Of a stretch of 64,000 bases of DNA, positions 21,323-55,700 are shown in pieces. The stretch is from Laetmonice hystrix (lineage: Eukaryota). The translations under genes were made by a program, and so were the position numbers. Location: contig OZ249436.1 of NCBI GenBank assembly GCA_965235115.1, forward strand, positions 37,016,001 through 37,080,000, given 5' to 3'. A model generated the notes under the pieces. The model saw only the letters and a program-made list of their open reading frames with translations, searched no databases and was not told the origin of the DNA. Positions within the stretch are counted from its first letter, which is position 1, and each line of letters starts with the position of its first letter.

Positions 21323-21377
21323 TTACCCTAACCTCTCCTCTGGTCCGTACCCTAATTTTCTTTCTGGCGGAAACCCT

Positions 21378-24300
21378 GATAGGTAGTGTTATACCATTTC
21401 CATTTAACTAATACCTCGTTTCGAAGAGATTCACTAACTTTAATGTTTACAATTTAGGCGGGGTTAATCTAAAGGTAAACTATATAGGTTCGGACAGGAC
21501 TTGTATCCCTCTGAAGAGACCTTAATACGCCTACTAAGGGATACGCTTTACAACATTTTAACGAGGCGTGAAATGGCGCATGCATTTACGCATTGTCTCT
21601 GCCATGGACGGCAAAGTCAGCCGCCAAACTGGTTACACTGAATGCCATTTTCACCAGCCGTTGGCACTTTGTTCGACCTCAAACCAAACCAGCATAGTCG
21701 TACTTTTTATTTATCCACCATTGATGTGTCCCCTTTTGTTACAGGCTGTATGCGTTGTCATTCGATGTGACGCTTTGCCTTTTGTAACCTGGACCATTAG
21801 TACGTTCTGAAACCACAAATCCTGAGTATTGTTCACTTTTACGGTTTTTTACTCACCATTCAGTCGCACTGAAGTCAGTTAAATATGCATATCTTGTCAT
21901 GGCCCTTCATTTTTAAACAAAAATTCAGCCTATTCATAAAATGAAAAACCCGATTATGACCTTATGTACCTTTATAGACGCACCAAAAAAACTACGATCG
22001 ATTGGCCAAAAACGTGTACGATGATCAAAGGACGTTGACTCCTATACTTTCCTCCCCTAATGGGGATCATGGCAGCCAAATTCACTCGAATTCGTTGCTA
22101 TGACAAAATACAATATGTACTTGAAAACGAACTGCCGTACGTACATTATACTTCTGACGACCTATTTCATTTTCAACGCGGGCATATTACCGTAAATATT
22201 ACTCGGGTATGAGGATTACGTCATTTATTTATAGACAAATCGCAAGGGAGTCGTGTATAAAATTATCAGTAATAAAATATCTTCACCTTTCTTTACATTA
22301 ATTAACACACTTCCTTATACCTTGAACACGTCATTATAATATATAGGATGAATGTTCCTTGCCAGACAGTGCACGAGATAGAATTCTGGCCATCCTCTAA
22401 ATAGAGACTTTCTACTCGTGAACTTTGGCTGGTAAAATAAAAAAAAGTGATACCTAAAATATGCACCCGTCTCATAATTTCATATCAAGCGACAATAATT
22501 GTTTAAATATTGTCGTCGGAACGTATCTCGGCCAAGCGACGTCGCCGAGTGATGGATGACATGTCGGCGATTTTTGTTTCCTAGCCGACAATAATTGGGC
22601 CGACATCTCCGGGGTGTGGCAGAAGTGTGTGTATCGCCAATGTCAAAATCGCCTGAGTGGAAACAGGATTTTAAGCACTGTCGGTCATCGGTCGGTTTGT
22701 CAAGTGTGGTTCAAAACCGTGCTGAACCGCCCAAAATGACGGCGGTGGGGCACACACATTCCTCGGTTAAAACACGGTGTGGAGAAGGTGGTGATGCGGT
22801 TGTCCGCGGTCAATGAAGGTCAAGATTACCGCGCTTTTACCGCATCATCACCGTGTGACCACCTTCCTAAACCGTGTAACCACCGCACATTACCGCTATA
22901 CATTTTGTCAACCGTGCTTCAACAGACTGAACCGCATCACAACTCCCTCTGAACCGTGTTATGACCTACTAGCTACCTTGTTGTCACCTTGTTGCCACCT
23001 ACTCCCACCTTGGCTAGCCATTTTACGTGGTTCTGAAGTGTTGTGAAAGGTGACAACAAGGCAGCAACGAGGCAGCAAGTCGGTGATGCACAGTTTTGAG
23101 AACCGCCGTGAAATTTTCAAACTTTTTGATAATCCCGTGGTTTCAAAAACGGGGTAGCGGTCAATGGCGATGTCTGGGCGATGTCATTGAGGTTCACCAC
23201 AGTTTGAAACCGTGCTGAACTGCCTGTTAGTGTGCAGTTGCCGACTTCCATGCCCCGAAACATGCTTTCACGAAAGATTGCAATGGGTTTCCAAATATAA
23301 TAGATGCACATATATCTGGGCTTACAGCTACGGGTTCATTCGTGTGTCGAGTGCTACCAGCTACATATGACGACATTTGGCGAGGACCCCCCCCCCCCCC
23401 CTTTAGTTGTAATATGACAAATGTACAAAGGACTATATAGGGGTAGAATGATAATGGTACAGGGTCAATCATGTCATGTAGGCTTTTATGCTTATATTCA
23501 ATGTTTACCAGAAACTTTGTAAATAACGAATTATGTTAATCTTAATAAACTTCATGAGTCCAGCTTCAAGCGGTGTCTTGTCATCCGTGGGCATTAAATT
23601 ATACCTAGTCTTCATTATCCTTTTTAGCTTTTCGCATGCATAACGAAAAGAAGACTGATGCTGTGCTACGTCTTGTGGAACTCTATTCTCTTGGATACCG
23701 CTTTAAACAGGTTATTTCAAAAGGGTGCAGTGGCTAAAGTATTAACTCTTACAGTAGAGGATGCCGCTACTTTTGAAACACCCTGCACTATAATTCTCCA
23801 CTCTCCCATCCCTGCCGAATCTACAGCGCCCACTTTTGAACGACCACATCGATACAGAGGCCGGTGCAGATTTGCCACGGGGGACGCTCAATGTGAGGGC
23901 ATTGACAGGTATTGTTAAACCATTTCCATTTAACTAATACCTCATTTCGAAGAGATTCACTAACTTTAATGTTTACAATTTAGGCGGGGTTAATCTAAAG
24001 GTAAACTATATAGGTTCCGACAGGACTTGTATCCCTCTGAAGAGACCTTAATACGCCTACTAAGGGATACGCTTTACAACATTTTAACGAGGCGTGAAAT
24101 GGCGCATGCATTTACGCATTGTCTCTGCCATGGACGGCAAAGTCAGCCGCCAAACTGGTTACACTGAATGCCATTTTCACCAGCCGTTGGCACTTTGTTC
24201 GACCTCAAACCAAACCAGCATAGTCGTACTTTTTATTTATCCACCATTGATGGGTCCCCTTTTGTTACAGGCTGTATGCGTTGTCATTCGATGTGACGCT

Positions 24301-26430
24301 TTGCCTTTTGTAACCTGGACCATTAGTACGTTCTGAAACCACAAATCCTGAGTATTGTTCACTTTTACGGTTTTTTACTCACCATTCAGTCGCACTGAAG
24401 TCAGTTAAATATGCATATCTTGTCATGGCCCTTCATTTTTAAACAAAAATTCAGCCTATTCATAAAATGAAAAACCCGATTATGACCTTATGTACCTTTA
24501 TAGACGCACCAAAAAAACTACGATCGATTGGCCAAAAACGTGTACGATGATCAAAGGACGTTGACTCCTATACTTTCCTCCCCTAATGGGGATCATGGCA
24601 GCCAAATTCACTCGAATTCGTTGCTATGACAAAATACAATATGTACTTGAAAATGAACTGCCGTATACATTATACTTCTGACGACCTATTTCAACGCGGG
24701 CATATTACCGTAAATATTACTCGGGTATGAGGATTACGTCATTTATTTATAGACAAATCGCAAGGGAGCCGTGTATAAAATTATCAGTAATAAAATATCT
24801 TCACCTTTCTTTACATTAATTAACACACTTCCTTATACCTTGAACACGTCATTATAATATATAGGATGAATGTTCCTTGCCAGACAGTGCACGAGATAGA
24901 ATTCTGGCCATCCTCTAAATAGAGACTTTCTACTCGTGAACTTTGGCTGGTAAAATAAAAAAAGTGATACCTAAAATATGCATCCGTCTCATAATTTCAT
25001 ATCAAGCGACAATAATTGTTTAAATATTGTCGTCGGAACGTATCTCGGCCAAGCGACGTCGCTGAGTGATGGATGACATGTCGGCGATTTTTGTTTCCTA
25101 GCCGACAATAATTGGGCCGACATCTCCGGGGTGTGGCAGAAGTGTGTGTATCGCCGATGTCAAAATCGCCTGAGTGGAAACAGGATTTCAAGCACTGTCG
25201 GTCATCGGTCGGTTTGTCAAGCGTGGTTCAAAACCGTGCTGAACCGCCCAAAATGACGGCGGTGGGGCACACACATTCCTCGGTTAAAACACGGTGTGGA
25301 GAAGGTGGTGATGCGGTTGTCCGCGGTCAATGAAGGTCAAGATTACCGCGCTTTTACCGCATCATCACCGTGTGACCACCTTCCTAAACCGTGTAACCAC
25401 CGCACATTACCGCTATACATTTTGTCAACCGTGCTTCAACAGACTAACCCGCACCACGACTCCCTCTGAACCGTGTTATGACCTACTAGCTACCTAGTTG
25501 TCACCTTGTTGCCACCTACTTCCACCTTCGCTAGCCATTTTACGCGGTTCTGAAGGGTTGTGGAAGGTGACAACAAGGCAGCAAGTCGGTTATGCACGGT
25601 TTTGAGAACCGCCGTGAAATGTTCAAACTTTTTGATAATCCCGTGGTTTCAAAAACGAGGTAGCGGTCAATGGCGATGTCTGGGCGATGTCATTGAGGTT
25701 CACCACGGTTTAAAACCGTGCTGAACCGCCATCAAAACCGCCCCCGTGTTAGGTCTGTTAGAGTGCAGTTGCCGACTTACATGCCCCGAAGCATGCTTTC
25801 ACGAAAGATTGCAATGGGTTTCCAAATATAATAGATGCACATATATCTGGGCTTACAGCTACGGGTTCATTCGTGTGTCGAGTGCTACCAGCTACATATG
25901 ACGACATTTGGCGAGGACCCCCCCCCCCTTTAGTTGTAATATGACAAATGTACAAAGGACTATATAGGGGTAGAATGATAATGGTACAGGGTCAATTATG
26001 TCATGTAGGCTTTCATGCTTATATTCAATGTTTACCAGAAACTTTGTAAATAACGAATTATGTTAATCTTAATAAACTTCATGAGTCCAGCTTCAAGCGG
26101 TGTCTTGTCATCCGTGGGCATTAAATTATACCTAGTCTTCATTATCCTTTTTAGCTTTTCGCATGCATAACGAAAAGAAGACTGATGCTGTGCTACGTCT
26201 TGTGGAACTCTATTCTCTTGGATACCGCTTTAAACAGGTTATTTCAAAAGGGTGCACTGGCTAAAGTATTAACTGTTACAGTAGAGGATGCCGCTACTTT
26301 TGAAACGCCCTGCACTATAATTCTCCACTCTCCCATCCCTGCCGAATCTACAGCGCCCACTTTTGAACGACCACATCGATACAGAGGCCGGTGCAGATTT
26401 GCCACGGGGGACGCTCAATGTGAGGGCACT
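21378..26430. repeat. Direct tandem duplication, about 2526-bp unit x2 (21378-23903, 23904-26430)
   Basis: Near-identical spurious ORFs at an offset of about 2526 (21568/24094, 23658/26185); scattered SNPs and indels; Harbinger-like non-coding fragments inside. Confidence 0.95.
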
Positions 26431-27739
26431 GTTTAGGTGTTCGTCGGAGGATCTGGGATCAAGTGGGATGTCAAATCCACGGCTACAAGATCAGCCCTCG
26501 AGGGTCGAGGGCGGTGCACTTCTCCGAGAGGCAACAGAATGGCAAGGAGGTGTCAGTGCGCAAGGCCCCCACGCCATCTCCTCGACCCTGACCGACATGT
26601 AAAGAGCGATTGGGTCGAAAGGGGCTAACCGCTGTAGTCATGTGCTGGAAGATTGAGAAGGTGGGTGCCTTCACTAAGCATCTGGGGTGGTGATGGACAT
26701 TTCTTGTAACCTTTAGAGACTCCTAGCAACGTTTGTTCCACTTGGGCTGACGTTCTGTAAGATCAGTCGGAATCTCTCCGTAACACGGTCCATGCGCCCA
26801 TCAATCTAGACCAAGGATCCAATAGGCAGGCCAAACCTGTCGGAAACCATGACCATCTCCCACAAAGGTATGTCAACGTTCCCCCGGGGATAGATACTGC
26901 AGCCTTTATTGAAACGTCTTATGGGGACGATAATATGTCCACTACAAAGGCATGTCTCCATTCTATTGCCTCGGACCAGAGCAGGTAGACCAAATAGTTT
27001 TAGGGTATTACAAACACCCTGTAAAATATACTCTCATTGAGAAATCTTTGAGTATTCATTGACATGCACTCATAGACAGATCGATCCAGGATGGAGGTGA
27101 GAGAAAGTCGACAATAGTTGTCACTCAAAAAAGGGGTGAGCGTTCAGACTCGCTGGAATCACCCTCAATAGATGTACCTAAGAGGGAGGGTCTGTGGTCT
27201 CAGACAGCGATATAGACGAAAGAAAAAGTCTAGTCTTTAAAATATTTTTGTTCGTGAAGGGATACCAATCTTTAACATGTTACAGACGTTCTCATATTCT
27301 ATATCTTGTCACCGCCTTAGTTCAAAACTTCTAGCAATATTTCATATCAATAATAATAAATATAGCAGGTTTCTTGTGTAAAATATAGGCCAGTTCTGCC
27401 TGACAGATGGCCTTGTTATAAATTTCGGTTCTGGGTGCCCAGAGATAGATGTCCTTGGGGCAAAGGGTCCGGTGTAAGTCTTAGCTTCATTTCGTTGAGG
27501 ATTGTGTGCATGGATTCTGCATAAATCGTAGGGTCACCCACATACACTCTTAAACAACAATGAAGTAGGCCTATGTGCGCAGCAGGTTTTTTTTCTCCCT
27601 AATGCAAAATTGTCGATAGTACCCCTCCCTCCTCAACCTTAAAATCTCTTCGCTTCCAGCGCAACAATTACATAATCGCACCGTTGAGTCTCAAAAAGCA
27701 TTAATAGCAGTGGCGCAACTGCAAGGGATATAGCAGGGG

Positions 27740-30950: not shown

Positions 30951-33908
30951 TACCCAGGGGGCCAGAGGGGTCAAGCAGACATGGTCTGCTGTAAAAGGTT
31001 GTTGTATATAGTTGGATTCCTTAGACCCTCATTAATAACTTCTAGGTGGACAACCTTTGCAACAAGCTACTGTAACTCCGCAATTCAAGATGGCGTCCAA
31101 GATGGCCACCATATCTTAAAGTCTCCATAATGTCGTCAATTTTTATTGAATTTTCATGTGCAATACCTCGTTTCTATGGTTTTCAGGGTCGGGGAATCCA
31201 TTTATGATGGTTTCACAGTGATAAAGACTGCAATTCAAGATGGCGTCCAAGATGGCCGCCATATATCACGTGAAATCTCCATAATGTCATCAATTTTCAT
31301 TTCATTTTCATGTGTAATACCTCGTTTCTATGGTTCTCAGGGTCGGGAAATCCATTTATGATGGTGTCACAGTGATAAAGACTGCAATTCAAGATGGCGT
31401 CCAAGATGGCCGCCATATATTAAATTCTCCATAATGTCGTCAATTCTTATTGAATTTTCATGTGCAATACCTCGTTTCTATGGTTTTCAGGGTCGGGGAA
31501 TCCATTTATGATGGTTTCACAGTGATAAAGACTGCAATTCAAGATGGCGTCCAAGATGGCCGCCATATATCATACAATCTCCATAATGTCATCAATTTTT
31601 ATTGAATTTTCATGTGCAATACCTCGTTTCTATGGTTTTCAGGGTCGGGGAATCCATTTATGATGGTTTCAGAGTGATAAAGACTGCAATTCAAGATGGC
31701 GTCCAAGATGGCCACCATATACATGTATCATGAAATCTCCATAATGTCGTCAATTTTCATTTCATTTTCATGTGTAATACCTTGTTTTTCAGGGTTGTGA
31801 AATCTATTTATGATGGTTTCAAAGTGATATGATTTGCTTTATACCATGTAAATGAAAAACAAACATTAAGACATAGCCTAAGTACCCATTACTACATTCG
31901 ACTTTTACTTGAATCAGTCCCGTGATAAAAGCGGCCCCCGTAAAATCTTTGAGGGAATCCCGGAACAAGTGTGTACAATGTACTCTTGCTTGTTTCTGAT
32001 AGATGGCTCGCTCTCTCGCTCAATCACTCATTTACTCACCCTGCCTCAGTCACTCAATCACTTACTCATGCATGTAGTATAGTGGGATATTGCTTGTCTG
32101 TGGTGTTGACTTCTAAGAACTGGTGATGGTATTGGCATTGCAAGTGTGTGAACCAAGATGACTAGCCAGACAGGGAAGAGAGTTGTTGAAGGAGTTGTGC
32201 CATTGGAGCGACCAAAGAAAAGGCGAGAGGATCCACTGACTGTTGACTAGAAGAAGTTGTCATTTGCCAGGCAGAATCACAAAAGGGACTTGTACATGTT
32301 ACATCAGTAACAAAGCTTATGCGGCCATGACTGCTCGGCAGCATGATACTACAGGAGCACATAGCCAACGACACGTGGATCACAGACAAATTCCCCAAAT
32401 GGCATGCAAAATGCAGGAACCTCTACCTCAATGAAAAGAGCTATACTGACAGAAAGGAAGCGTCTTGGAACACCAGATAAGGCTGATCAACCCTCAAACA
32501 GTACACTTCCCAGGTCACCTATTGCCACCACACGAAGCTTTGTTACTGATGTAACATGTACAAGTCCCTTTTGTGATTCTGCCTGGCAAATGACAACTTC
32601 TTCTAGTCAACAGTCAGTAGATCCTGTCGCCTTTGCTTTGGTCGCTCCAATGACACAACTCCTTCAACAACTCTCTTCCCTGTCTGGCTATAGTCATCTT
32701 GGTTCACACACTTGCAATGCCAATACCATCACCAGTTCTTAGAAGTCAACACCACAGACAAGCAATATCCCACTATACTTCATGCATGAGTAAGTGATTG
32801 AGTGACTGAGGCAGGGTGAGTAAATGAGTGATTGAGCGAGAGAGCGAGCCATCTACCAGAAACAAGCAAGAGTACACTTGTTCCGGGATTCCCTCAAAGA
32901 TTTTAGGTGGGCAGTTTTTGTCACGGGACTATAACTGATTCAAGTCAAAGTCGAACGTAGTAATGGGTACTTAGGCTATGTCTTAATGTTTGTTTTTCAT
33001 TTACATGGTATAAAGTAAATCATATCACTTTGAAACCATCATAAATAGATTTCACAACCCTGAAAAACAAGGTATTACACATGAAAATGAAATGAAAATT
33101 GACGACGTTATGGAGGTTTCATGATATATGGCGGCCATCTTGGACGCCATCTTGAATTGCAGTCTTTATCACTGTGAAACCATCATAAATGGATTCCCCG
33201 ACCCTGAAAACCATAGAAACGAGGTATTGCACATGAAAATTCAATAAAAATTGACTACATTATGGAGACTTTAAGATATGGTGGCCATCTTGGACGCCAT
33301 CTTGAATTGCAGCCTTTATCACTGTGAAACCATCATAAATGGATTCCCCGACCCTGAGAACCATAGAAACGAGGTATTACACATGAAAATGCAATGAAAA
33401 TTGATGACATTATGGAGATTTCATGTGATATATGGCGGCCATCTTGGACGCCATCTTGAATATTGCAGTCTCTATCACTCTGAAACCATCATAAATGGAT
33501 TCCCCGACCCTGAAAACCATAGAAACGAGGTATTGCACATGAAAATTCAATAAAAATTGATGACATTATGGAGATTGTATGATATATGGCGGCCATCTTG
33601 GACGCCATCTTGAATTGCAGTCTTTATCACTGTGAAACCATCATAAATGGATTCCCCGACCCTGAAAACCATAGAAACGAGGTATTGCACATAAAAATTC
33701 AATAAAAATTGACGACATTATGGAGACTTTAAGATATGGTGGCCATCTTGGACGCCATCTTGAATTGCGGAGTTACAGTAGCATGTTGCAAAGGTTGTCC
33801 ACCTAGAAGTTATTACTGAGGGTCTAAGGAATCCAACCATATACAACAACCTTTTACAGCAGACCGTGTCTGTTTTCACAAAAAAAAACGTGGCTGGCCC
33901 CCTGGGTA
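30951..33908. mobile_element. Academ-derived foldback element: two about 1.37-kb inverted arms and a 216-bp spacer
   Basis: Termini TACCCAGGGGGCCAG...CTGGCCCCCTGGGTA, 3-bp TSD TAT/TAT. Arms 30951-32318 and 32535-33908, each with five about 150-bp repeats carrying CAAGATGGCGTCCAAGATGGC. Confidence 0.85.
32158..32534 (+). pseudogene. 5' fragment of an Academ-like transposase (frameshifted, truncated)
   Basis: MTSQTGKRVVEGVVPLERPKKRREDPLTVD*KK/VICQ...DTWITDKFPKWHAKCRNLYLNEKSY resembles the DWxxCxICQ...WHxxCR N-terminal motif of Academ transposases. Its first part is mirrored in the right arm. Confidence 0.6.
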
Positions 33909-35075: not shown

Positions 35076-35798
35076 GAAATGCAGCGCTAATACGCCAGCT
35101 TCAGGCTGGCGCTGGCCTTAGTGCAGGGGTGAGAGTTGGTGTGCGGGTGGGTGCTTTGCTTTAGCTGCATGCACGCCTACATTCAGTCTGTATAGAAAAT
35201 GCACCGGAATAACTCTAACAAAATGTATTTTTCGCGTTTCATAATCAATGGTTCTGGGATCTAAAATACCGCCGAGTTCTATACAATGGATCTGTTTTGC
35301 AGCTGCGCAACACAAACGCTGGCAAAACATTTCTTATAGGATCATATATACGCTTAGTCTATACAGATCTATTTAACGAAGTGAAATGGCCATTTAAACA
35401 GTGGTAACGTTAGTACATTTATATTGAATTCCAGTCAAAAGCATTTCGTTCACTTATAGAAGGAAATTTTGATTATATAGATCAATAACAATAAAGTTTG
35501 TTCGATTGCCAAGTTTCAGGAATTAAATACCACAAACAAAATAAAATCGCATCTGCATTATAGGCACGTAGCCTCTCAGATTTACACAAAGGGTATCAAC
35601 AGTGTGCTATAATATTGCTCCCCATGGCATGGAAACACAATCATGTATTGCAGCTGGTGTATATTTAAGCGCTGGGAATGACAGAAGATAGAAGAATCCA
35701 CATCTTAATGTTACGAAGCCGGAGCTGCATTCTTCTAAATGGTCTCATCGGGCTGTATAAAGGTAAATAAAACTACAACATTGTATAACGTTTTATAG

Positions 35799-35984
35799 AC
35801 CCATGCCGCCAGATTTCCAAATAAAAAACGCGGCTCAACTTGTTTTGTTTTCTCCTCCTCCTCCTCCTCCTCCTCCTCCTCCTCCTTCTTCTCCTGCTCT
35901 CTCCCCATCCTCCTCCTCCTCCCTCCTCCTCCTCCCTGCAACCCCTCCTCCTCCCCCTCTTCTTCTTCTTCTTCTTCTTCTTCT

Positions 35985-36017
<33 letters not shown>

Positions 36018-36019
36018 GT

Positions 36020-36052
<33 letters not shown>

Positions 36053-37481
36053 TTCTTCTTCTTCTTCTTCTTCTTCTTCTTCTTCTTCTTCTTCCTCCTC
36101 CTCCTCCTCCTCCATTTTTTCGTTCCTAGAGTATAATAGATTCCATACAAACGGTCACCTCTTCCCTATTTCCAATTCGTCATAGATCATCTTCCCCTTC
36201 CATCCCGTCCCATTCCTCAGGTCAAGTGAAGTAGCCCGTGTCAAACAGGCTCTCTCTCCTAGGGTTAGCTGCTCGTCCACCGAGGGCTAGATTTGGATTT
36301 CTCGGTACGGCTACAGGCCGTCCCACTTCAAAGTCGGTAATCTCCACGGATACCGCGTCGCTCTCGGCGCCCGCGGTAATACCGCGTGGACGAAGGGGCT
36401 TCCGCTTCCGTCATCCGGCCGCCCGGCTCCAAATACCGCGCTCTCTCTGGCTTGTGTAGAACGTTCGCGGGTAAAACTTCGGGGATTAATCCAAAGTAGC
36501 GCATCAAGACGTTCTACGTAGCGTTGCCTGTTATCGTCTTCTGATATCATTCACCATACGCCTAGTAATATCATGTTCTTTGAATCGTTAAATTGGGCCA
36601 ATCAGTGTTGTTATTTGTGACATGTTTGCATGGCGCTGAAACAAAATCGTCTACCTCACCGAACTGAAAGAAAGATCGCGTTATGTTAGCGTTCTTTCTC
36701 TTCAAAAGAGGTTTATTGATTTGTAATCGTTTGTTCTCTTCTAATGACTCCGAGACGAAGCACTTCAAGGTACGTTTACTGATACCTCTAAAACCACACA
36801 CTCGTACCGTGTTTTACTGATAACCTCAAACACCACGGACTGGTAGTGTTATGTGTTAACCTCTAAAACCACGCACTCGTACCGTGTTTTACTGATAACC
36901 TCAAACACCACGGACTGGTAGTGTTATGTGTTAACCTCTAAAACCATGCACTTGTACAGTAGTACGGTATGCGCTAACCTCTAAAACCCCACACTGGTAT
37001 TACAGTGTTATGTGCTAACCTCTAAAACCCCACACTGGTACAGTGTTATGTGCTAACCTCTAAAACCCCACACTGGTACAGTGTTATGTGCTAACCTCTA
37101 AAACCCCACACTGGTAGTGTTATGTGCTAACCTCTAAAACCACGCCCTGGCGCCATGTTATATGCTAACCTCTAAAACCCCACACTGGTATTACAGTGTT
37201 ATGTGCTAACCTCTAAAACCCCACACTGGTACAGTGTTATGTGCTAACCTCTAAAACCCCACACTGGTACAGTGTTATGTGCTCCTCTAAAACCCCACAC
37301 CACCCCATGCCGCCAGATTTCCAAATAAAAAACGCGGCTCAACTTGTTTTGTTTTCTCCTCCTCCTCCTCCTCCTCCTCCTTCTTCTCCTGCTCTCTCCC
37401 CATCCTCCTCCTCCTCCCTCCTCCTCCTCCCTGCAACCCCTCCTCCTCCCCCTCTCTTCTTCTTCTTCTTCTTCTTCTTCT

Positions 37482-37552
<71 letters not shown>

Positions 37553-38782
37553 TTCTTCTTCTTCTTCTTCCTCCTCCTCCTCCTCCTCCTCCTCCATTTT
37601 TTCGTTCCTAGAGTATAATAGATTCCATACAAACGGTCACCTCTTCCCTATTTCCAATTCGTCATAGATCATCTTCCCCTTCCATCCCGTCCCATTCCTC
37701 AGGTCAAGTGAAGTAGCCCGTGTCAAACAGGCTCTCTCTTCTAGGGTTAGCTGCTCGTCCACCGAGGGCTAGATTTGGATTTCTCGGTACGGCTACAGGC
37801 CGTCCCACTTCAAAGTCGGTAATCTCCACGGATACCGCGTCGCTCTCGGCGCCCGCGGTAATACCGCGTGGACGAAGGGGCTTCCGCTTCCGTCATCCGG
37901 CCGCCCGGCTCCAAATACCGCGCTCTCTCTGGCTTGTGTAGAACGTTCGCGGGTAAAACTTCGGGGATTAATCCAAAGTAGCGCATCAAGACGTTCTACG
38001 TAGCGTTGCCTGTTATCGTCTTCTGATATCATTCACCATACGCCTAGTAATATCATGTTCTTTGAATCGTTAAATTGGGCCAATCAGTGTTGTTATTTGT
38101 GACATGTTTGCATGGCGCTGAAACAAAATCGTCTACCTCACCGAACTGAAAGAAAGATCGCGTTATGTTAGCGTTCTTTCTCTTCAAAAGAGGTTTATTG
38201 ATTTGTAATCGTTTGTTCTCTTCTAATGACTCCGAGACGAAGCACTTCAAGGTACGTTTACTGATACCTCTAAAACCACACACTCGTACCGTGTTTTACT
38301 GATAACCTCAAACACCACGGACTGGTAGTGTTATGTGTTAACCTCTAAAACCACGCACTCGTACCGTGTTTTACTGATAACCTCAAACACCACGGACTGG
38401 TAGTGTTATGTGTTAACCTCTAAAACCATGCACTTGTACAGTAGTACGGTATGCGCTAACCTCTAAAACCCCACACTGGTATTACAGTGTTATGTGCTAA
38501 CCTCTAAAACCCCACACTGGTACAGTGTTATGTGCTAACCTCTAAAACCCCACACTGGTACAGTGTTATGTGCTAACCTCTAAAACCCCACACTGGTAGT
38601 GTTATGTGCTAACCTCTAAAACCACGCCCTGGCGCCATGTTATATGCTAACCTCTAAAACCCCACACTGGTATTACAGTGTTATGTGCTAACCTCTAAAA
38701 CCCCACACTGGTACAGTGTTATGTGCTAACCTCTAAAACCCCACACTGGTACAGTGTTATGTGCTCCTCTAAAACCCCACAC
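35799..38782. repeat. Direct tandem duplication, about 1.48-1.5-kb unit x2
   Basis: Identical ORFs at offset 1482 (36238/37720, 36571/38053). Unit = (CCT)n/(CTT)n tract, about 660 bp of unique DNA, then a 38-bp minisatellite. Confidence 0.95.
35851..36113. repeat. Compound (CCT)n/(CTT)n polypyrimidine microsatellite (second copy about 37355-37595)
   Basis: Read directly; it generates the poly-E/K/F/L/S pseudo-ORFs. Confidence 0.95.
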
Positions 38783-43700: not shown

Positions 43701-44193
43701 AAACTTCAATAGGATTACATAAAATCTTCAAATTAGGCTCACACCAGTCAAGGAAAACGTGACATTATATATAATAGGTTATACCTTTTCGCCAGCGCTT
43801 TATTTACAGCATTGCAATTTTAACGAGGCAGCGCTCCTCAGTGAATGATACCGCAGTTAAATTGCTATTCGACAGGTGCCACGCATGTTTAATTAGGACA
43901 TAAATACTTCGTTAGAAGAATTGATTACGTAAACGGACAGCCACATGCCATCTTTGGAACCCAGACTAAGAAATTGACTGCGTATACTTGTGATTTCATT
44001 TAGATAACACCATTATCTTTTATTATATTTGCAACGTTCTCAACGTGTTCGAAAAGATAAATTATCACTGGGGTGCATTAGTTAAAATAGCACATGTATT
44101 CAAGCCTACAGAAATTATTTCTAAGTGAACCCTGTCACTCCAGACATGAGGCAGATAACAAGGACTATATAGTATCGTGGCTGGCAACATTAA

Positions 44194-44719
44194 AGGGAGT
44201 CGTAAAATTCATTTTTTCGATTTATGGCAGTCTTAGAAACATATGATTCGCATACCTTGGCCTCCCAGTAACATCATGTGAGACTGTTATGGCCCAGCGA
44301 CCAGTATTTAGTAAGGAAAATATGCCAAATCTCTCGCAAATAAGTAGCTCAGAATTAGCGAGTGGCCCACAGGATATTTGAGTTGGCCGCGGTCGGGCGA
44401 TGATGACGCGTGATCACGCGACTTCCGGGTGTGGAAGGGAATCTCCCTCTAGTCTAGCATTGACCTAAATACCGCATGTACACCCGGAAGTCACGTGATC
44501 ACGCGACATCATCGCCCGACCGCGGCCAACTCAAATATCCTGTGGGCCACTCGCTAATTCTGAGCTACGTATTTGCGAGAGATTTGGCATATTCTCCTTA
44601 CTAAATACTGGTCGCTGGGCCATTACAGTCTCACATGATGTTACTGGGAGTCCAAGGTATGCGAATCATAATGTTTCTAAGACTGCCATAAATCGAAAAA
44701 ATGAATTTTACGACTCCCT
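44194..44719. mobile_element. Palindromic Kolobok-type MITE (about 235-bp arms)
   Basis: TTAA|AGGGAGTCGTAAAATTCATTTTTTCGA...TCGAAAAAATGAATTTTACGACTCCCT|TTAA; arms near-perfect around an about 50-bp centre. Confidence 0.9.
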
Positions 44720-44776
44720 TTAATAATCAAAGTACTAGTATGGGTCTCCAATCCTTAATTCCTAATGTAGCAGTAA

Positions 44777-45801
44777 TTAAATCAAACAGCTGTAAACTTT
44801 CATAGTACCTTTTGTCATTTCAAAATCCTTCTTCATAATTCTAATATAACCATTGCTCGTCGACAGAAAAAGGCCACACGCCGGTATGTCATTGAAAGGA
44901 TCCTCATTATCCACTGGAAATATTACTTTGACATGACCAATAAAGGTGCTCAGTAGTGGGACCATTCCAAGCGATTGTTGCACGCAAAAGCACACTTACC
45001 GCTTATTTGATAAGAGTAGGGCCTTGGCCCGATGTTCGGGGTGTTCCTGTATGAGCTCATCATCTCCACGGGACAGAAAAAAAAGAAAACCCGTCCTGAC
45101 ATAAGCTTGCCTGTATTTTAAAGTGACAGAGTTGGTTGCGGGTGAACTTTGTAGGTCGAGTTTTGGAATAGTTGAAGCCAAAACGGAACCATCAGACCTT
45201 TTTTTAAAGTAGGCCCTATTGCAAACGGGCGTTGAGACATAGTGAAATTCGATGTATTCCAAAATATATTCTGTATACTCTCCATGCTGCTACAAGCCCA
45301 CTAACGACCAGCGAATGTCCATCAAACTAAGATAGAGACAGCATGGATGAAGTCATCAGACAGGCAATTTGTCAGTATGGATGCAGGCAATTGCAATTTC
45401 CTTCCACACAACTCCAACACAAGTTCCTTTGTAGATAGCACACCAACTCTTGTCAAGGATCCCTACTACATTTCCCATGTCATGGCCCCCAACTGGGCAC
45501 TTAACAACTCCCCTTCTGTAAAGACCCAACACCCAACGCCAAATTCATTTTTATTACACCAACCCCCAAAAATTCCCTCCCCTCTGGTCTCTGTGTCAAA
45601 AACACTAATACTCCCGGATGGGAGGGGGGGGGAGGCGGCAGTCAACAAAAACTCCGCTCGGCTTGACCGTCTGCATTCAAGAAGAACCAATCTACCCGGC
45701 CCTTCCACTTTTATACCCCCTCGGTCATGATATTTGCATAGCCCTCCGTCGTGCGGAAGTAAAACAAAATTTCGTCGGTTGAAATTTGCCTGTGCTGCCA
45801 A
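44777..45801 (-). pseudogene. Possible decayed coding segment of unknown family
   Basis: Three successive minus-strand ORFs (45466-45801, 44996-45262, 44777-44995); the last two are in frame across one stop. AG acceptor near 45808, GTAAGT near 45000. No recognisable motif. Confidence 0.25.
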
Positions 45802-45955
45802 TCATCTATGAATAGAAAACAGGAGAATGGAGAGTGAAACTATCTCATGTTAAAATCACTATAAAACAAAGAACGAAAGTAAACAAAAACACTGGATACA
45901 TGTCTTGGCCAATATTACCATATAAACTCTGCAATGCATCCATCAAACAATAATA

Positions 45956-46750
45956 TTTATGCAGGCAACACTCGGAAACAGATAATGTTGTTATTTGGGC
46001 AACACCCGTTTATTATAATATTAAAAATATAAGTTGGACAGTGAGCCCACACTGCACGTGTCCAACATTAATTAAAGGTTTAGGACAATTAGGTTATTTC
46101 TGAACAGAAACTGCATTGTCATGGGAATAGATATGGTAGAAAATTACAACTAACGATAACAATAAGTAAATGTCCATGAATTGGTATTACTCTTGACAGT
46201 GAGCCCTCACTGCACCGTCTCGAAACCATTAATGTCCCATTTTTGACAATGAGCCCACACTGCATTGTCATGGGAATAGATATGGTAGAAAATTACAACT
46301 AACGGTAACAATAAGTAAATGTCCATGAATTGGTATTACTCTTGACAGTGAGTCCACACTGCACCGTCTCGAAACCATTAATGTCTATGTTCCCAAATCT
46401 AAAAATAGGAACATTATCGTTAAAAAATATGTGTTAAAGGGTTAAAAATGTGTTGAACAGTTAAATGTGAGTGGCGACGCAGAGCCCATCAAACAGATGA
46501 CCTAAGGCGGCAGGTGGGGCGGTGGAGGCACTGAAAACCGTTACCCTGCGTGTCTTGAAGAAAGTGGGAAGATTCAAGGACAACGTCACGGTCGTCAACC
46601 GGTTGCGGCATGATGCATGATGGGATTCGGCGTGACATAATTATTCAACACATGACCCAGAAAGTTGTTGCCATGACGGCACTGATTCAGACAGTAGGCC
46701 TCTCGTGTTTTCCTGCATAAAATTCGTTGAACCTTCGATTACAACGTGCC
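45956..46750 (+). mobile_element. Short Helentron/Helitron2-type non-autonomous element (HINE), unit 1 of a head-to-tail dimer
   Basis: 5' TTTATGCAGGCAACAC; its inverted partner GTGTTTTCCTGCATAAA lies about 30 bp from the 3' end, followed by hairpin CGTTG..CAACG. T-rich target, no conventional TSD. Confidence 0.7.
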
Positions 46751-47646
46751 TTTATGCAGGCAACACTCGGAAACAGATAATGTTGTTATTTGGGCAACAC
46801 CCGTTTATTATAATATTAAAAATATAAGTTGGACAGTGAGCCCACACTGCACGTGTCCAACATTAATTAAAGGTTTAGGACAATTAGGTTATTTCTGAAC
46901 AGAAAGGGTGTCACCATCCCATTCTTGACAATGAGCCCACACTGCATTGTCATGGGAATAGATATGGTAGAAAATTACAACTAACGGTAACAATAAGTAA
47001 ATGTCCATGAATTGGTATTACTCTTGACAGTGAGCCCTCACTGCACCGTCTCGAAACCATTAATGTCCCATTTTTGACAATGAGCCCACACTGCATTGTC
47101 ATGGGAATAGATATGGTAGAAAATTACAACTAACGGTAACAATAAGTAAATGTCCATGAATTGGTATTACTCTTGACAGTGAGTCCACACTGCACCGTCT
47201 CGAAACCATTAATGTCTATGTTCCCAAATCTAAAAATAGGAACATTATCGTTAAAAAATATGTGTTAAAGGGTTAAAAATGTGTTGAACAGTTAAATGTG
47301 AGTGGCGACGCAGGCCACTAACCTGCTTGGAACAAGCAGGTGGAGCCACCCACAACACACAGTGCAGGGATGCAGGGAAATGAAACGCCTATTCTGCAAC
47401 CGATGCAAATCATCTGCTTTCCCTTGTTTCCTTGATTCTTTGAAGGTCAAGTTGAGTTAATGATTGTGTCACAAATATTATGGTATGAAACTCAACCATG
47501 GAGTTTCAAACATATTCCCCACACAGGGCAACTGCAAAAAGAATGGAGGTATAGCTCCAATAAAAACATCTTGTCGATCCAACGAAGATGGACACCGGCT
47601 AGGCCTATTATCTAGTCAGATCCGAAAAACCGCTCCAAATCCCATT

Positions 47647-48117
47647 TTAACTGAAGCGTCCATACGGAGTTTCAAGGAGACACCGCGATTGTTGGTGAAA
47701 AGCATTCTTTGCTAATATTATATGATCATACAGATCACACACGTAGATCTGCTCTTGCACCACTGCATCTGGCCACAGCAAGAATGGTCTGGAAGAGACT
47801 GGGAGTACCCAGTCGAGGCTCAGGCCGGGCCGAACTCCTATCTCCAACCTCCCTGAACAGTCGTAAATGGGAACCGTCTGGACACCAGCCGCGAATCCTT
47901 GCGAAATAGTCGAGGCCGACCCGGTTCCACTTAACACACAATGAGACGCTCCCTCTTGCATGGGGGCATGGAGATCGGAGAATTCCGTGGGAGCTTGGGC
48001 TTGGACCTCAATCGTGTAGTCGCCATCATGAACAGAAGCCGTACAAGGGAACATGGCCAGGGTAACAACCCGCTCATTGAAGTTGATTGAATTGAAGGGC
48101 TCATTGTAGAGCCAAAG
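47647..48117 (-). CDS. Unknown open frame (156 sense codons; 135 aa from Met) carried inside the long Helentron-like unit
   Basis: One of the longest non-repetitive ORFs in the window, in a GC-richer patch inside an AT-rich element; no recognised domain. Confidence 0.3.
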   Translation of the reverse strand, partial: LWLYNEPFNSINFNERVVTLAMFPCTASVHDGDYTIEVQAQAPTEFSDLHAPMQEGASHCVLSGTGSASTISQGFAAGVQTVPIYDCSGRLEIGVRPGLSLDWVLPVSSRPFLLWPDAVVQEQIYVCDLYDHIILAKNAFHQQSRCLLETPYGRFS

Positions 48118-48424
48118 TCAATGACAAAACTCCCAGATTGAATAATAATATATGTTGTGTATAACATTGGCCGAATAGGGGAAGTATAATATTATACTGA
48201 ATAATTCATTTAGCATAATGTAAATCGTTACGTAATATACGATTATGAAATTAAACTGATATCTACGAATTTGATGATAGAGATAAGCCTAGATGATATG
48301 TCAGTCAGTGGCGAAAAACCATGGTTTACATGTAATAATAATACATATACATGTATAATAACATAAATGTAATATAATATAAATTGAACGTAAATCAAAT
48401 GTTAGGCACACATGTGATACTGAT

Positions 48425-49760
48425 AGGCTGCTAATCCAGGGGAAACCCACGATCTCCCAATGGCCTATACGGCCAACAAAATATTGTTAATATTATAATA
48501 ATGTATCTCTGAAGCAGCAAAAAGTAAAATAAATGTAAAAGAGACTGAACATTCGAACTGCTGTCGCGCTGATCCAACAGAACACTCGATGGTCTCTCAA
48601 TGGCTGAGCCTAACAGTGAACACAACATTTATGTCGTGAACGCATCACATCAGTCGATGTAATTGCAACGTAAACAAAATGGTTAAATGTGAGCCAGATC
48701 CTAGATGGGCTGCAAACTCAGGACAGTCGAATCCCAACGATCTTTCATTGGCATTGGCATATATGCAGTGGCCAATATCAATTAACTATAATGTTGTATC
48801 ACTGAAGCAAAAATTATAATAATATAAATATTAAGAGACTGAAAATTTGCGACTGGTATGTCATATGAGGCCAATATCAAGTAAATATAATATTGCATCA
48901 CTGAAGCAAAGACAAAGTATATTATATAATCTCAATAAAAAGACTATGTATCGTGTACATGTCACATCAACAGTAATGAAGTAAAGTAATACAGTATGAA
49001 GTGAAATCAATCAGTCGGGTAAATGTGAGCCAGACATGAGAAGGGCTGCTAATTTAGCATAAGCCCAACGATCCCTCAATGTCACATCAGGCCAATATCA
49101 AGTAAATATATTGCATCACTGAAGCAGAGACAAAGTATAATATCTCAATAAAAGAGTCTATGTATCGTGAATATATCACATCAACTGAGGTAATATAATA
49201 TGAATTGAAACAAATCAATTGGGTAAATGTGAGCCAGACATAAGAAGGGGCCGCTAATCCAGCATAAGCCCAACGATCTCTTAATGTCATATCAGGGCAA
49301 TAGCAATAATATATTGTATCGCCGAAGCAAGCACAAAGTATTGAAACAAAATCAATTGGGTAAATGTGAGCCAGACATGAGAACTCAGAGAAGGGCTGCT
49401 AATCCAGGATAAGCCCAACGATCTCTTAAGGTCATATCAGGACAAAAGCAATAATATATTGTATCGCCGAAGCAAACACAAAGTATTGAAACAAAAATCA
49501 ATTGGCTAAAATGTGAGCCAGACATGAGAAAGGCTGCTAATCTAGCATAAGCCCAACGATCTCTCAATGTCATATCAGGCCAATAGAATAATATATTGTA
49601 TCATCAAAGCAAAAACAAAGTATTGAAACAAAATCAATCGGGTAAACTAAATGTGAGCCAGACATGAGAAGGGGGTGATAATCCAGCATAAGCCCAACGA
49701 TCTCTCAATGTCATATCAGGCCGATAGAATAATATATTGTATCACCGAAGCGAAGTAAAA
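48425..49760. repeat. Degenerate satellite array, irregular units
   Basis: Recurring AAATGTGAGCCAGACATGAGAAGGGCTGCTAATCCAGCATAAGCCCAACGATCTCTCAATGTC; more decayed toward 48425. Confidence 0.85.
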
Positions 49761-49789
49761 TGTAGCAATAAAAAAAAAAAAAAAAAAAT

Positions 49790-52740
49790 TAATAAAGACT
49801 GAAAGAAAATTGGAACTGCTGATCAAAGAGAAAACCCAATAGTTTCCCGATGACAGAGCCCAACACAAAAATATATACGAGATATAAATCCCATTAATAT
49901 CAATCATAATCAAATGTGACCAATAATGAAGAGAACCAAACGGTCTCCCAATAAGGTCTAAATATAGCAATAACAAGGTGTATAATGTAGCCATAATAAA
50001 AATATAAAGACTGAATAGAAAGTTGGAACTACTGATCAAAGAGAAAACATGATAGTCTCTTGATGACAGAGCCCAACACAAAATACGGGATATAAATCCC
50101 ATTAATATCAATCATAATAAAATGTGACCAATAATGAAGAGAACCAAACGGTCTCCCAATAAGGTCTAAATACAGCATTAATAAGGTGTATAATGTAGCA
50201 ATAATAAAAATATAAAGACTAAAAAGAAAATTGAAACTGCTGATCAAAGAGAAAATATGATAGTCTCTCAATGACAGAGCCCAACACAAAAATATATACG
50301 GGATATAAATCCCATTAATTCCAATCATAATAATAATATGTGACCAATAATGAAGAGAACCAAACGGTCTCCCAATAAGGTCTAAATATAGCAATAATAA
50401 GGTGTATAATGTAGCGATAATAAAAATATAAAGACTGAAAAGAAAACTGGAACTACTGATCAAAGAGAAAACATTATAGTCTCTCTATGACAGAGTCCAA
50501 CACAAAAATATATATGCGGGATATAAATCCCATTAATATCAATCAATCATAATAAAATGTGACCAATAATGAAGAGAACCAAACGGTCTCCCAACAAGGT
50601 CTAAATATAGCAATAATAAGGTGTATAATATAGCAATAATAAAAATATAAAGACTGAAAAGAAAATTGGAACTACTGATCAAAGAGAAAATATGATAGTC
50701 TCTCGATGACAGAGCCCAACACAAAAATATATATGCGGGATATAAATCCCATTAATATCAATCATAATAAAATGTGACCAATAATGAAGAGAACCAAACG
50801 GTCTCCCAATAAGGTCTAAATATAGCAATAATAAGGTGTATAATGTAGCGATAATAAAAATATAAAGACTGAAAAGAAAACTGGAACTACTGATCAAAGA
50901 GAAAACATTATAGTCTCTCTATGACAGAGTCCAACACAAAAATATATATGCGGGATATAAATCCCATTAATATCAATCAATCATAATAAAATGTGACCAA
51001 TAATGAAGAGAACCAAACGGTCTCCCAATAAGGTCTAAATATAGCAATAATAAGGTGTATAATATAGCAATAATAAAAATATAAAGACTGAAAAGAAAAT
51101 TGGAACTACTGATCAAAGAGAAAATATGATAGTCTCTCGATGACAGAGCCCAACACAAAAATATATATACGGGATATAAATCCCATTAATATCAATCAAT
51201 CATAATAAAATGTGACCAATAATGAAGAGAACCAAACGGTCTCCCAAAAAGGTCTATAGCAATAATAAGGTGTATAATGTAGCAATAACAAACATATAAA
51301 GACTGAAAAGAAAAATGGAACTGCTGATCAAAGAGAAAACAGTATAGTCTCTCGATGACAGAGCCCAACGCAAAAATATATATACGGGATATAAATCCCA
51401 TTAATATCAATCATAATCAAATGTGACCAATAATGAAGAGAACCAAACGGTCTCCCAATAAGGTCTATAGCAATAATAAGGTGTATAATGTAGCAATAAT
51501 AAACATACAAAGACTGAAAGGAAAATTGGAACTGCTGATCAAAGAGAAAACATGATAGTCTCTCGATGACAGAGCCCAAAACAAAAATACGGGATATAAA
51601 TCCCATTAATATCAATCATAATAAAATGTGACCAATAATGAAGAGAACCAAACGGTCTCCCAATAAGGTCTATAGCAATAATAAGGTGTATAATGTAGCA
51701 ATAACAAACATATAAAGACTGGAAAGAAAATTGGAACTGCTGATCAAAGAGAAAACATGATAGTCTCTCGATGACAGAGCCCAACACAAAAATACGGGAT
51801 ATAAATCCCATTAATATCAATCATAATCAAATGTGACCAATAATGAAGAGAACCAAACGGTCTCCCAATAAGGTCTATAGCAATAATAAGGTGTATAATG
51901 TAGCAATAACAAACATATAAAGACTGGAAAGAAAATTGGAACTACTGATCAAAGAGAAAACAGTATAGTCTCTCGATGACAGAGCCCAACGCAAAAATAT
52001 ATATACGGGATATAAATCCCATTAATATCAATCATAATAAAATGTGACCAATAATGAAGAGAACCAAACGGTCTCCCAATAAGGTCTATAGCAATAATGT
52101 GTATAATGTAGCGATAATAAACATAAAGACTGAAAAGAAAATTGGAACTTCTGATCAAAGAGAAAACAGTATAGTCTCTCGATGACAGAGCCCAACGCAA
52201 AAATATATATACGGGATATAAATCCCATTAATATCAATCATAATAAAATGTGACCAATAATGAAGAGAACCAAACGGTCTCCCAATAAGGTCTATAGCAA
52301 TAATAAGGTGTATAATGTAGCAATAATAAACATATAAAGACTGAAAAGAAAATTGGAACTACTGATCAAAGAGAAAACATGATAGTCTCTCGATGACAGA
52401 GCCCAACGCAAAAATATACGGGATATAAATCCCATTAATATATCAAAAATAATAAAATGTGACCAATAATGAAGAGAACCAAACGGTCTCCCAATAAGGT
52501 CTATAGCAATAATAAGGTGTATACTGTAGCAATAATAAACATATAAAGACTGAAAAGAAAATTGGAACTACTGATCAAGGAGAAAACATGATAGTCTCTC
52601 GATGACAGAGCCCAACACAAAAATAAGGGATCTAAATCCCATTAATATCAATCGTAATAAAATGTGACCAATAATAAAGAGAACCAAATGGTCTCCCAAT
52701 AAGGTCTAAATATAGCAATCATAAGGTGTATAATGTATCA
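49790..52740. repeat. Satellite array, about 205-219-bp unit, about 14 copies, with a 434-bp dimeric higher-order repeat
   Basis: Marker GAAGAGAACCAAACGGTCTCCC recurs about 14 times (49928 to 52677); near-identical ORFs at offset 434 (50539/50973). Confidence 0.95.
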
Positions 52741-55700
52741 ATAAAAAATATATATATATACAACACACGTAGCCAGATTAATTAAACAGGCCCCGTAATG
52801 TACAGTATATACGGGATACATATCAATCATCATTCACAAATATGCTGTAAATTGTAATGTATCAATAATGTATAAAGAAACCGTGGCCAATAGAATGAAT
52901 TTAATGTAATAATATATCAGGTTAAGGTAGCATTTATACAATAATTTACATGTGTAGGAAAACATTGGCAATAGGAAATAACCACTGAATGATGGATGAA
53001 AACAAAACGGTCACTCTTGTAGATCTACTCCCGCAAGACAAAATTCAATGGCATTTTAATAGACACGACACGTAGCCACCCGTCCTCAGAGCCAACGTCA
53101 AACACTAAGTCAATAAGTGACTAACGAGGTTACTAGATTCTAAACTAGTAGATATCATATAGTCATAACTAACGTCGTTAGATTAAACGCTAATGTAGGC
53201 TCAGGCTAAGTATCAAATTCATGACATAAGACAAGTCGATCCAGTTAGACCGGCTAGCCTGACTAGCGTAGTGAGTAGTGTCTATCATTATCAATCAACT
53301 AGATCTAGTCTATAACAAAACTACAGCCACATTCACTAGATCTAGATCTACCCCGATAGTAAAGAACTAACGGTGACGTTAAATTCGGATTCACTCTAGA
53401 ACTAAACTCCTTGGGTATCTGTGACAGGACGACGAAGATGAATGCTGTCACTAAGACTAGTAAGAGTAAGAATCAAGACGTACCCAGACGCCATTTTGCT
53501 TAGCCTAGCCCTAGGCCTAACTCCTAGGAGATATAAAGATGGCTAAACCTAGGCCAACAGACTATGCCTAGAAAATGAAAGCAAGTACAAAAGACGGGTG
53601 ACCATTTTATAAAGACGTGACTAGAAACTCAACCTCGGATGAACTAAAATTAAGACGATTGAGAGTGATAAAATGCGACCGTTGCCACTGAAAACCGTTA
53701 CCCTGCGTGTCTTGAAGAAAGTGGGAAGATTCAAGGACAACGTCACGGTCGTCAACCGGTTGCGGCATGATGCATGATGGGATTCGGCGTGACATAATTA
53801 TTCAACACATGACCCAGAAAGTTGTTGCCATGACGGCACTGATTCAGACAGTAGGCCTCTCGTGTTTTCCTGCATAAAATTCGTTGAACCTTCGATTACA
53901 ACGTGCCTTGTTTACAGTAATACAAGCCTCTATAGCTTACTATAGCCATAAACGACTATCAGAAACTGCTGGAACTTCGTAACTGTCCACTCGTTAAAAT
54001 ATCAATGGGATTTTCAACATCCTCCCCAGGTTATTATTCCGTTCGCAAAAAAATCATTACCATAATTGAAAATTGTCCAAACGTGATGGTTATGGTAAAC
54101 GTATTTGAGCACTTGGCTCGATGTTGCCACTATTATCAAAGTCGTATTTTTATAAGTATTATGATAAGTTACGACTCCAATTATACGGCTCGCCAGTCAC
54201 ATTAATCAACATTCGGTATACAACGGATAATTTATAATAATATAGAAACATGCCAATAGCGTGTTTAGTCAAAGCATTCTTTTGACTAGTACCCCTTATT
54301 TGCAGCTGAGAACTGATGAATGAAACTCGCCAAACCTGATCAAATGCAATTAATCCATTTTTATTTCTTCTATGAATTTTTGAATCGCAGTTAAACTATA
54401 CGTGCATCAAGTGTTAATTGTAAAATACATAAATTAAAATATTCAAAGAGCGTTCACATGAATATAATCCGACGGTACAGAGATTAGTATATTCCAGAGT
54501 GGGGCATACATGGGGTGAGTCACTATACTGTTGGTCTGGGAATGCATGTCTGCAACGTATGTTATAGTCAATCTAACTATAATACAGTGACGACACTGTC
54601 CTAACACGGATGCTGAAGGTCTTCTTCAAGGCCAGACTGCTCTAACTCACGTAACAAGTCTCTTCAGAGTTGCAGACATCAGGCAGGACTCAAGGTAAAC
54701 CAAACTTCAGACATGATTTGGAGGTTATGCAGAATCAATTCGGTTTTGAAGGAGCGTTGTTCTGATTCAGGGCGATATAAGACGCATTCTGCAGTGCCAC
54801 TTCCTTGTGCATGCATGCGATGCCTGTGAATTTGTTTTTATTATTTAAAGGTAAATACACATTCTGCAAAATTCCCAAGGAAATTGTTTTCAGCGTGTTT
54901 GGCCCCTAAATGAATCTTTTTCATGGGGTTGGCATTATCTTATACCGTCAAAGAATGGTATTTTCTTTAGACTGTGAAGTAATTTTTGTGTGACCGAGCG
55001 AGTGAAGGAAGAGCGTGGTAGAAGGACTTTTAGAGTACGATACAACATTGACGGCAGGGCACGTACAAAAACAGCTTGGAATCATACATCTCGAAGACTT
55101 GGGACAACTCCTCTCGCTTACTCCCTGGAACTTTCTCGAAAATATAAACTTAGACCTAAACCTCTAAACGGATCTCTACCACATGCCTTCCGTCGCAAAG
55201 TATAAAGTAGATATACTACAACTCAAGAGCAGCATCCTAATATGTTAGATGAGCATCCTAATAGGTTAGATGAGGCTTTATACTACATAAATCAATAAAT
55301 GTATACCCAAAGAAATGGAGGAATCTAAAGAAATTCAACAAGCCAGTTGCCTGTTGTCGCTACACTGAAAATCTTTCTGACTAACAAGTTAGAAAAAAAG
55401 TACTAACCTCTTAGTCTTTATGGCTGTGTCTAAAATGACTGACCCCCCATAGCCTTTATGGCTAGCAACTTAGTCAATCAAATTTGATTGACTAATAGTT
55501 AGTCTTTTTGTCTAACATCCGATCCACTCGGCATGTGCTTTGGTCCCCATACCCAAATGGTAAATCCCACTGAAAAAATAACAAACATCTGAGATGCACG
55601 AAAAATACACACTTTGTATTGTATTTAAGTCACCGTATTCAAACTTACAGTATCCATGCAGTACCCATTATGGGTATACACTTGAAGTTACAACAGTAAA

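Follow-up and report, generated by a model that had tools for sequence, protein, structure and literature searches.

Among the retroelements with split direct repeats, Ngaro elements carry two repeats, A and B, in the order A1-[ORFs]-B1A2B2, where the body holds the open reading frames (ORFs) (PMC8547959; Cafeteria Ngaro1-4), and this order is shared by the PAT elements (PAT/Toc/Kangaroo; PMC4157794). The repeats of Xenopus DIRS-53_XT measure 236 and 152 nt (10.1101/2021.08.05.455354), while VIPER of Trypanosoma cruzi has the order A1..B1-A2-B2 with repeats of 173 and 219 bp; the short element SIRE consists of VIPER's A2, about 30 unique bases and B2 (PMC6681497). Here, we describe a 7.95-kb element at 45956..53907 (7952 nt) of a 64,000-nt stretch of DNA (the window, from whose first letter all coordinates run) of an animal-like, repeat-rich host genome. 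An original prediction, made from the letters of the window, had taken this element for a head-to-tail dimer of a Helentron-like rolling-circle element, in which a minimal 0.8-kb 'short unit' is fused to a 7.2-kb cargo unit. With moderate confidence, it is read here as a single copy of a DIRS-order retroelement that is young and non-autonomous and has the split direct repeats of the PAT/Ngaro/VIPER layout. The family is new; the kind of element is already known.

The likeness to Ngaro and PAT elements extends to the arrangement A1-body-B1A2-B2, the adjacent internal junction, repeats that are a few hundred bases long and match within each pair fully or nearly so, and a total length of about 6-8 kb. 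In contrast to these groups, the element has no ORF for gag, reverse transcriptase/RNase H, tyrosine recombinase, methylase or hydrolase, its body consists of satellites, and its junction is flanked by a short offset inverted repeat and a hairpin, a combination for which a listing-level literature search gave no description in these groups. SIRE corresponds exactly to the 0.8-kb 'short unit' and the 46-nt linker in it. VIPER itself differs in being coding and restricted to kinetoplastids, so that it is compared by layout and no sequence relation is implied. A further parallel is TOC1 of the green alga Chlamydomonas reinhardtii, a split-repeat element without coding capacity in which a short unique spacer separates the last two repeats and the interior holds a tandem array. 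TOC1 is given as active (10.1101/2022.05.23.493040).

DIRS1-like elements form the second group for comparison. Of 28 such elements, 23 begin and end in NTT, their inverted terminal repeats measure 66-316 nt, and their right extensions past the inverted repeat are 9-75 nt long, with 26-34 nt in at least six table rows (PMC3266345). Xenopus families end in TTT (PMC9210276). In DIRS-1, a hairpin lies at 4792-4805 of 4814, just before the 3' end, and according to the DIRS-1 model its transcript lacks the ends, which are restored with the internal junction copy as a template (PMC7192593). The element shares the NTT ends, a right extension of similar length, the subterminal hairpin and an internal copy of the circle junction with the DIRS1-like elements. 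Their internal junction, however, is inverse-complementary, whereas that of the element is direct and accompanied by long direct repeats.

Repeat order and a rare letter shared by both B repeats

Read off the sequence, the element consists of A1, a 46-nt linker, B1 joined directly to A2, a 6372-nt interior and B2 (Table 1), after which TT follows at 53908-53909. The block order of the original prediction was thus confirmed in the sequence, including the exact junction at 46750/46751, which reads ...GTGCC/TTTATGCAGG... The order is that of split-repeat elements, A1..B1A2..B2 with an adjacent internal junction, and the repeats pair accordingly: B1 and B2 are identical at 222/222 nt, and A1 and A2 differ by one substitution (46156/46987) and one 36-nt gap. 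This gap of A1 is not the family form in the sequencing-run contigs described below, where a joint of 46916 to 46236 has a depth of 4955 in run X1. No third copy of A or B was found within the 64-kb window. The long inverted terminal repeats and the inverse-complementary internal region that characterize DIRS1-like elements are not found; the repeats are direct, and the inverted part amounts to 10-15 nt.

A plausible course for the mobilization of such an element can be envisaged on the minus strand, on which it reads X1 - body - Y1/X2 - 46-nt spacer - Y2 (X = B, Y = A). By extension of the DIRS-1 model, a transcript would start in the CpG-rich X1 and stop at AATAAA near the end of Y2. A reverse transcriptase acting in trans would copy this transcript, and the internal Y1/X2 junction would serve as the template that rebuilds both missing ends, thereby closing a circle. 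A tyrosine recombinase, likewise in trans, may then recombine the TT(T) of the circle junction with a T-rich target; the offset inverted repeat is the probable binding site of this recombinase. The 'short unit' would in this case be no separate element but the terminal part X2-spacer-Y2, as SIRE is in VIPER, with the satellites as cargo. A CpG-rich X (observed/expected ratio of 1.11 in B1 vs 0.79 for the window) and an AATAAA near the Y end fit an X1-to-Y2 transcript, neither being strong by itself. The AATAAA at 46009..46014 is the sole one in repeat A on either strand, with its second copy, in A2, at 46804-46809.

A further line of evidence is a single letter. Both B1 and B2 carry A at 46738/53895, 12 nt from the junction, while the family letter is G. 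In the contigs of four sequencing runs (X1-X4), A accounts for 213 of a depth of 13,814 in X1 (1.5%) and for none in X2, X3 and X4; G makes up 13,600 of 13,814 in X1 and all depth in the other three. A shared rare letter is as expected if both B copies were copied from one template. Extension of the DIRS-1 model to direct repeats predicts that a letter newly arisen near the junction turns up in both copies of X, which matches the observation. If the short and the long unit were independent, the letter would be shared about 1.5% of the time unless a step of gene conversion or assembly is added.

This bears directly on the less probable alternative of a non-autonomous Helentron/Helitron2 family (HINE, DINE-1-like) with 0.8-kb and 7.2-kb forms and frequent tandems. 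RepHel acting in trans would nick at the 5' T, displace one strand and terminate at the 3' inverted arm plus hairpin, and head-to-tail tandems would be common owing to read-through of the inner end or to insertion at the TTT of an existing end; the present locus would be such a tandem. Rolling-circle copying alone, however, fails to give both B copies the near-private letter, and gene conversion must be added. The split direct repeats of elements with reverse transcriptase and tyrosine recombinase, which the original prediction had named as the contrary case, fit the order exactly and better explain the shared letter; no such genes were found in the element.

Linker, junction and dispersal of the family

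The four runs derive from one sample, are counted as one and may be the source of the window; they hold 0.72, 0.69, 0.66 and 0.53 of the words of 45000-48900. Contigs were placed on 46236-46916, which reaches from halfway through A1 across the linker, B1 and the junction into the first part of A2, and the evidence is drawn from 20 of the 79 rows of loose ends and 32 of the 500 pieces. Exact contigs in X1 have depths of 4651 (A) and 4504 (B), diverged pieces 24-55, and the main contigs show 0-1 differences from the window. The family is multicopy and young; the depth ratio suggests several tens of copies, depth itself not being a copy number. Loose ends with mixed letters (agreement 0.56-0.75) cluster on both sides at 46749-46753 in X1, X2 and X3. 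The family is hence dispersed and ends at the junction sequence, in line with the original prediction of a mobile family with these ends and T-rich targets; its contrary scenario, blocks confined to a single locus, is contradicted by these contigs.

The linker is found in deep contigs of 4/4 runs, with depths at 46500 of 1853 (X1, where two letters occur), 1582 (X2), 771 (X3) and 284 (X4). In X1-X3, the linker/A depth ratio is 0.38, 0.31 and 0.39, and A/B is 1.03-1.13; these values lie near the 0.5 and 1.0 predicted for an intact split-repeat element. Among the loose ends listed, the window's own interior ends have the best support, both behind A (X1, X2, X3) and before B (X1, X2), and the linker and this interior hence are the two main paths. 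The end of the interior segment 52755..53685 recurs before B as a loose end at 46529 in X1 and X2. In X4, contig 32 has a length of 379 nt and a depth of 330 and runs across the junction, extending 175 letters to one side and 166 to the other. Since an assembler would keep only common paths, the junction path is presumably common in the family. Neither the family-wide linker nor the junction bridged by this deep contig is thus special to the locus, which speaks against the proposal that one rolling-circle event created a short and a long unit here. In a comparison of the linker with the interior, 108/200 shuffles score equally well, so that the linker is not derived from this interior by deletion. 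This, and the fact that the linker is an older, polymorphic feature of the whole family, speaks against the Helentron reading.

A monomer family of either class is also conceivable, the locus being a secondary product. It could have arisen through a partial duplication or a recombination on the spot, through gene conversion between adjacent copies, or through an assembly step in which B1 and B2 were homogenized. Unrelated local duplications are frequent in the window (11828-13854/19270-21322, 21377-26431, 35800-38782), the shared letter was seen in one of the four runs, and solo AB repeats arise by recombination in Ngaro families (PMC8547959). Nevertheless, we regard such an origin as quite improbable. 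The junction is exact at the family termini and lies on the path of a deep X4 contig, the linker occurs in the deep contigs of all runs, and the shared letter has a depth of 213 in X1 and is thus present in the reads of that run.

Helitron2-like termini and class assignment

Helitron2 elements possess asymmetric terminal inverted repeats of 8-15 bp, the 5' one being located 0-2 bp from the end, which starts with T, and the 3' one about 20-30 bp from the end, upstream of a hairpin (PMC3627910). Helentrons insert in TT and carry variable Ts and central tandem repeats (PMC4067079), with monomers of mostly 140-180 bp in oyster HINE (PMC7492417). The termini of the element resemble this description closely. 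Its first 10 nt find a perfect inverted complement at 46712-46721 (53869-53878 in B2), and five more pairs across a bulge lengthen the match to 15. The subterminal arm is separated from the end of B by 29 nt that hold the hairpin, which corroborates the predicted inverted partner about 30 bp inside the 3' end. The chance of such a partner for a random 10-mer in a random 60-nt stretch of the window is 0.00023 (about 200,000 draws). With the letter of the window, the hairpin has -3.4 kcal/mol (12/200 shuffles as good), and with the family G at 46738 it gains four more pairs and reaches -6.2 kcal/mol, a value without shuffle control. The 5' stem of 5-6 bp at the terminal arm (-2.1 kcal/mol) is matched by 103/200 shuffles. 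The flanks read ...AATAATA/TTT on the left and GCC/TTGTTT on the right without target duplication past the T run; TTT is found at the 5' end, TT at the 3' end and one TTT at the junction. Contigs leave the element after TTT in X1 (three), X2 (two) and X3 (three), and no empty site was encountered; these ends fit DIRS-order elements and Helentrons equally.

Most of the published features of Helitron2/Helentron ends are therefore present, namely inverted repeats of 10-15 bp at 0 and 29 nt from the ends, a 5' T, a downstream hairpin, T-rich ends that would fit TT targets, and central tandem repeats of 149 and about 145 nt like those of HINE/DINE-1. Tandem Helitrons are on record (PMC5148889, PMC12001565, PMC7492417), and the rare letter in B1 weakens the hairpin (from -6.2 to -3.4 kcal/mol), which could favour read-through. 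In contrast, the hairpin expected at the 5' end, a defining trait of Helitron2, does not stand out from shuffles. HINE, DINE-1 and Helitron2 are described as monomers or tandems of like units, while the element has two unlike interiors, a family-wide internal junction and co-varying B copies. A listing-level literature search found no Helentron family with a fixed dimer of unlike short and long units, and neither the element nor the scanned ORFs of the window yielded any piece of RepHel (Pfam, E 0.001). The terminal features, which the original prediction took to define Helentrons, are not exclusive to them: DIRS1-like elements also have T-rich ends, an offset inverted repeat and a 3' hairpin.

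Several observations weigh against the DIRS-order reading. The inverted repeat of 10-15 nt is short in comparison with the 66-316 nt of DIRS1-like elements (PMC3266345), and a listing-level search of the open-licence literature found no paper on a short arm plus hairpin at PAT/Ngaro junctions. DIRS-1 geometry makes the plus strand the sense strand, whereas the Ngaro order makes it the minus strand. The element gave no match to gag, reverse transcriptase, RNase H, recombinase, methylase or hydrolase. The fixed order is seen in a single full copy, the present one, and among the contigs listed none spans the 681 nt of 46236-46916. Contig depth, moreover, is by the tool's own warning no copy number, and assembly may drop bubble alleles. 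Finally, the linker/A ratio in X4, whose library type is unrecorded, is 0.86, and the depths in this run (A end 248, linker contig 284, B plus junction 330, interior contig about 69) look like an excess of short units rather than 2:2:1, as the Helentron alternative with its abundant short units would have it. The interior contig of about 69 is the one whose loose end maps to the interior at 48502; its placement exposed a 21-nt AT-rich inverted match between repeat A (46805-46825) and the interior (about 48481-48501). The same run contains a contig (contig 31) of 2846 nt and depth 533 that enters B at 46543 from a different upstream sequence, of which 30 letters are listed. It behaves as a further interior of a Helentron family would, and no other contig points as well to a possible partner element or a third interior.

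On balance, the element probably works like a dependant of PAT/Ngaro/VIPER elements. As it lacks their coding features, it is filed as a probable non-autonomous dependant and not as an autonomous member. Enzymes are needed in trans under the DIRS-order and the Helentron readings alike. It is unlikely that the element truly joins the split-direct-repeat order with complete Helitron2-type ends, either as a 'split-repeat Helitron' (HUH, a fixed short-plus-long unit and rebuilding of the repeats from one template) or by way of PAT/Ngaro circle junctions that are Helitron2-like. A new kind of system would be at hand only if a RepHel enzyme turned out to be the partner.

Taken as a non-autonomous element with split repeats, the locus would provide a clean and young example of a sparsely described class, and it would map the cis parts needed, which comprise the two repeats, the 46-nt spacer and a junction that bears the hairpin and the offset inverted repeat. 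The terminal signature of Helitron2/Helentron can also occur where the order of the repeats speaks for the DIRS order. Hence, structure-only annotation of gene-less families can assign the wrong class. If, in the unlikely case named above, PAT/Ngaro-type circle junctions of these animals resemble Helitron2 ends, some annotated HINE/Helentron-like families would be dependants of tyrosine-recombinase retroelements.

Interior of the element and other repeats in the window

The two interiors of the original prediction, a 46-bp linker and an ORF plus satellites, are correct as a layout, whereas the 'ORF' is a 156-codon stop-to-stop frame without credible homologue (Table 1). It is possibly a decayed or captured coding piece. 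The units of 149, 145 and 210 nt are unrelated to one another (57-188/200 shuffles score equally). At the start of the interior, the region 47300-47360, which includes a second stem besides the hairpin listed, folds with -14.6 kcal/mol (1/200 shuffles as good).

Table 1. Features of the element in window coordinates.
Feature	Coordinates	Strand	Remarks
Repeat A1	45956..46482	+	527 nt; about 1.9 copies of a 149-nt unit; without 36 nt found in A2
Terminal arm of offset inverted repeat	45956..45970	+	starts with TTT; weak nested 5' stem, partner 15 nt downstream
Candidate poly(A) signal AATAAA	46009..46014	-	53 nt from minus-strand element end; followed by GT-rich stretch
Linker (spacer)	46483..46528		46 nt, GC-rich; family-wide, polymorphic at 46500
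Repeat B1	46529..46750	+	222 nt, identical to B2
Subterminal arm of inverted repeat	46705..46721	+	29 nt from end of B
Subterminal hairpin	46725..46746	+	A at 46738 in window (53895 in B2), G in family
End-to-start junction B1/A2	46750..46753		single TTT; bridged by contig 32 of X4
Repeat A2	46751..47313	+	563 nt; two 149-nt units at 46917-47216; family-typical form
Interior	47314-53685		between A2 and B2
9-bp perfect hairpin	47321..47341		start of interior
Stop-to-stop frame	47647..48117	-	GC-rich, 156 codons; no credible homologue
Diverged tandem array	48858..49773	+	units of about 140-145 nt
Satellite array	49792..52754	+	14 units of about 205-219 nt
Interior segment adjoining B2	52755..53685		unique in window; its end also precedes B in deep-family contigs
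Repeat B2	53686..53907	+	222 nt; inverted arm 53862-53878, hairpin 53882-53903

In the two non-satellite parts, 47300-48400 and 52750-53920, Pfam returned no family in 12/12 frames, and three word-seeded protein searches with 353, 390 and 44 candidates gave no homologue. Atlas matches to interior frames score 0.81 or lower and are leads only. The sole phmmer match among 1.84 billion proteins was P0001 (E 1.1e-6, four stretches), a repetitive protein of 1308 aa with a glycine-rich Pfam domain; its best single stretch has 31% over 74 aa (E 0.003 against the window), and the match was rejected as a sum of weak repeats. On the minus strand near 47590, a short GVHL motif is reminiscent of the hydrolase encoded after the recombinase in Ngaro elements; no search supported this likeness. 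Outside the element, the window contains 81 stop-free frames of at least 85 aa. For 59 of these, no Pfam family was found at E 0.001, the same threshold gave none for ten others, and 12 low-complexity frames at 35738-37664 were left out. A scan with the 3'-end pattern returned 57 metagenome and three viral-contig loci, which were dismissed as chance hits, since 0/60 resemble the element outside the pattern itself (lowest blastn E 0.17; tblastx gave no match).

The window harbors a number of further repeats. A foldback at 30973-33875 has arms (30973-32318/32535-33875) that are 94% complementary and comprise 4.6 copies of a 150-nt unit each. A 2-kb segment is duplicated with 96% identity at 11828-13854/19270-21322, the second copy following directly after about 5.5 telomere-like TAACCC units at 19239-19272. 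Just past this copy begins a head-to-tail duplication of a 2.5-kb unit with 96.6% identity (21377-26431), and a tandem duplication of a 1.5-kb unit (98%) with CTC/TCT runs and a 38-nt minisatellite is located at 35800-38782. A 67-nt minisatellite with ten copies of 98% identity occupies 315-986. Closer to the element, 1.2 kb to its left, a near-perfect palindrome of 536 nt at 44189-44724 resembles a miniature inverted-repeat element, and one of its arms recurs at 11419-11722 (97%). About 200 nt left of the element, at 45690-45760 on the minus strand, octamer-like and TATA-like motifs, spotted by eye, lie close together and face away from it.

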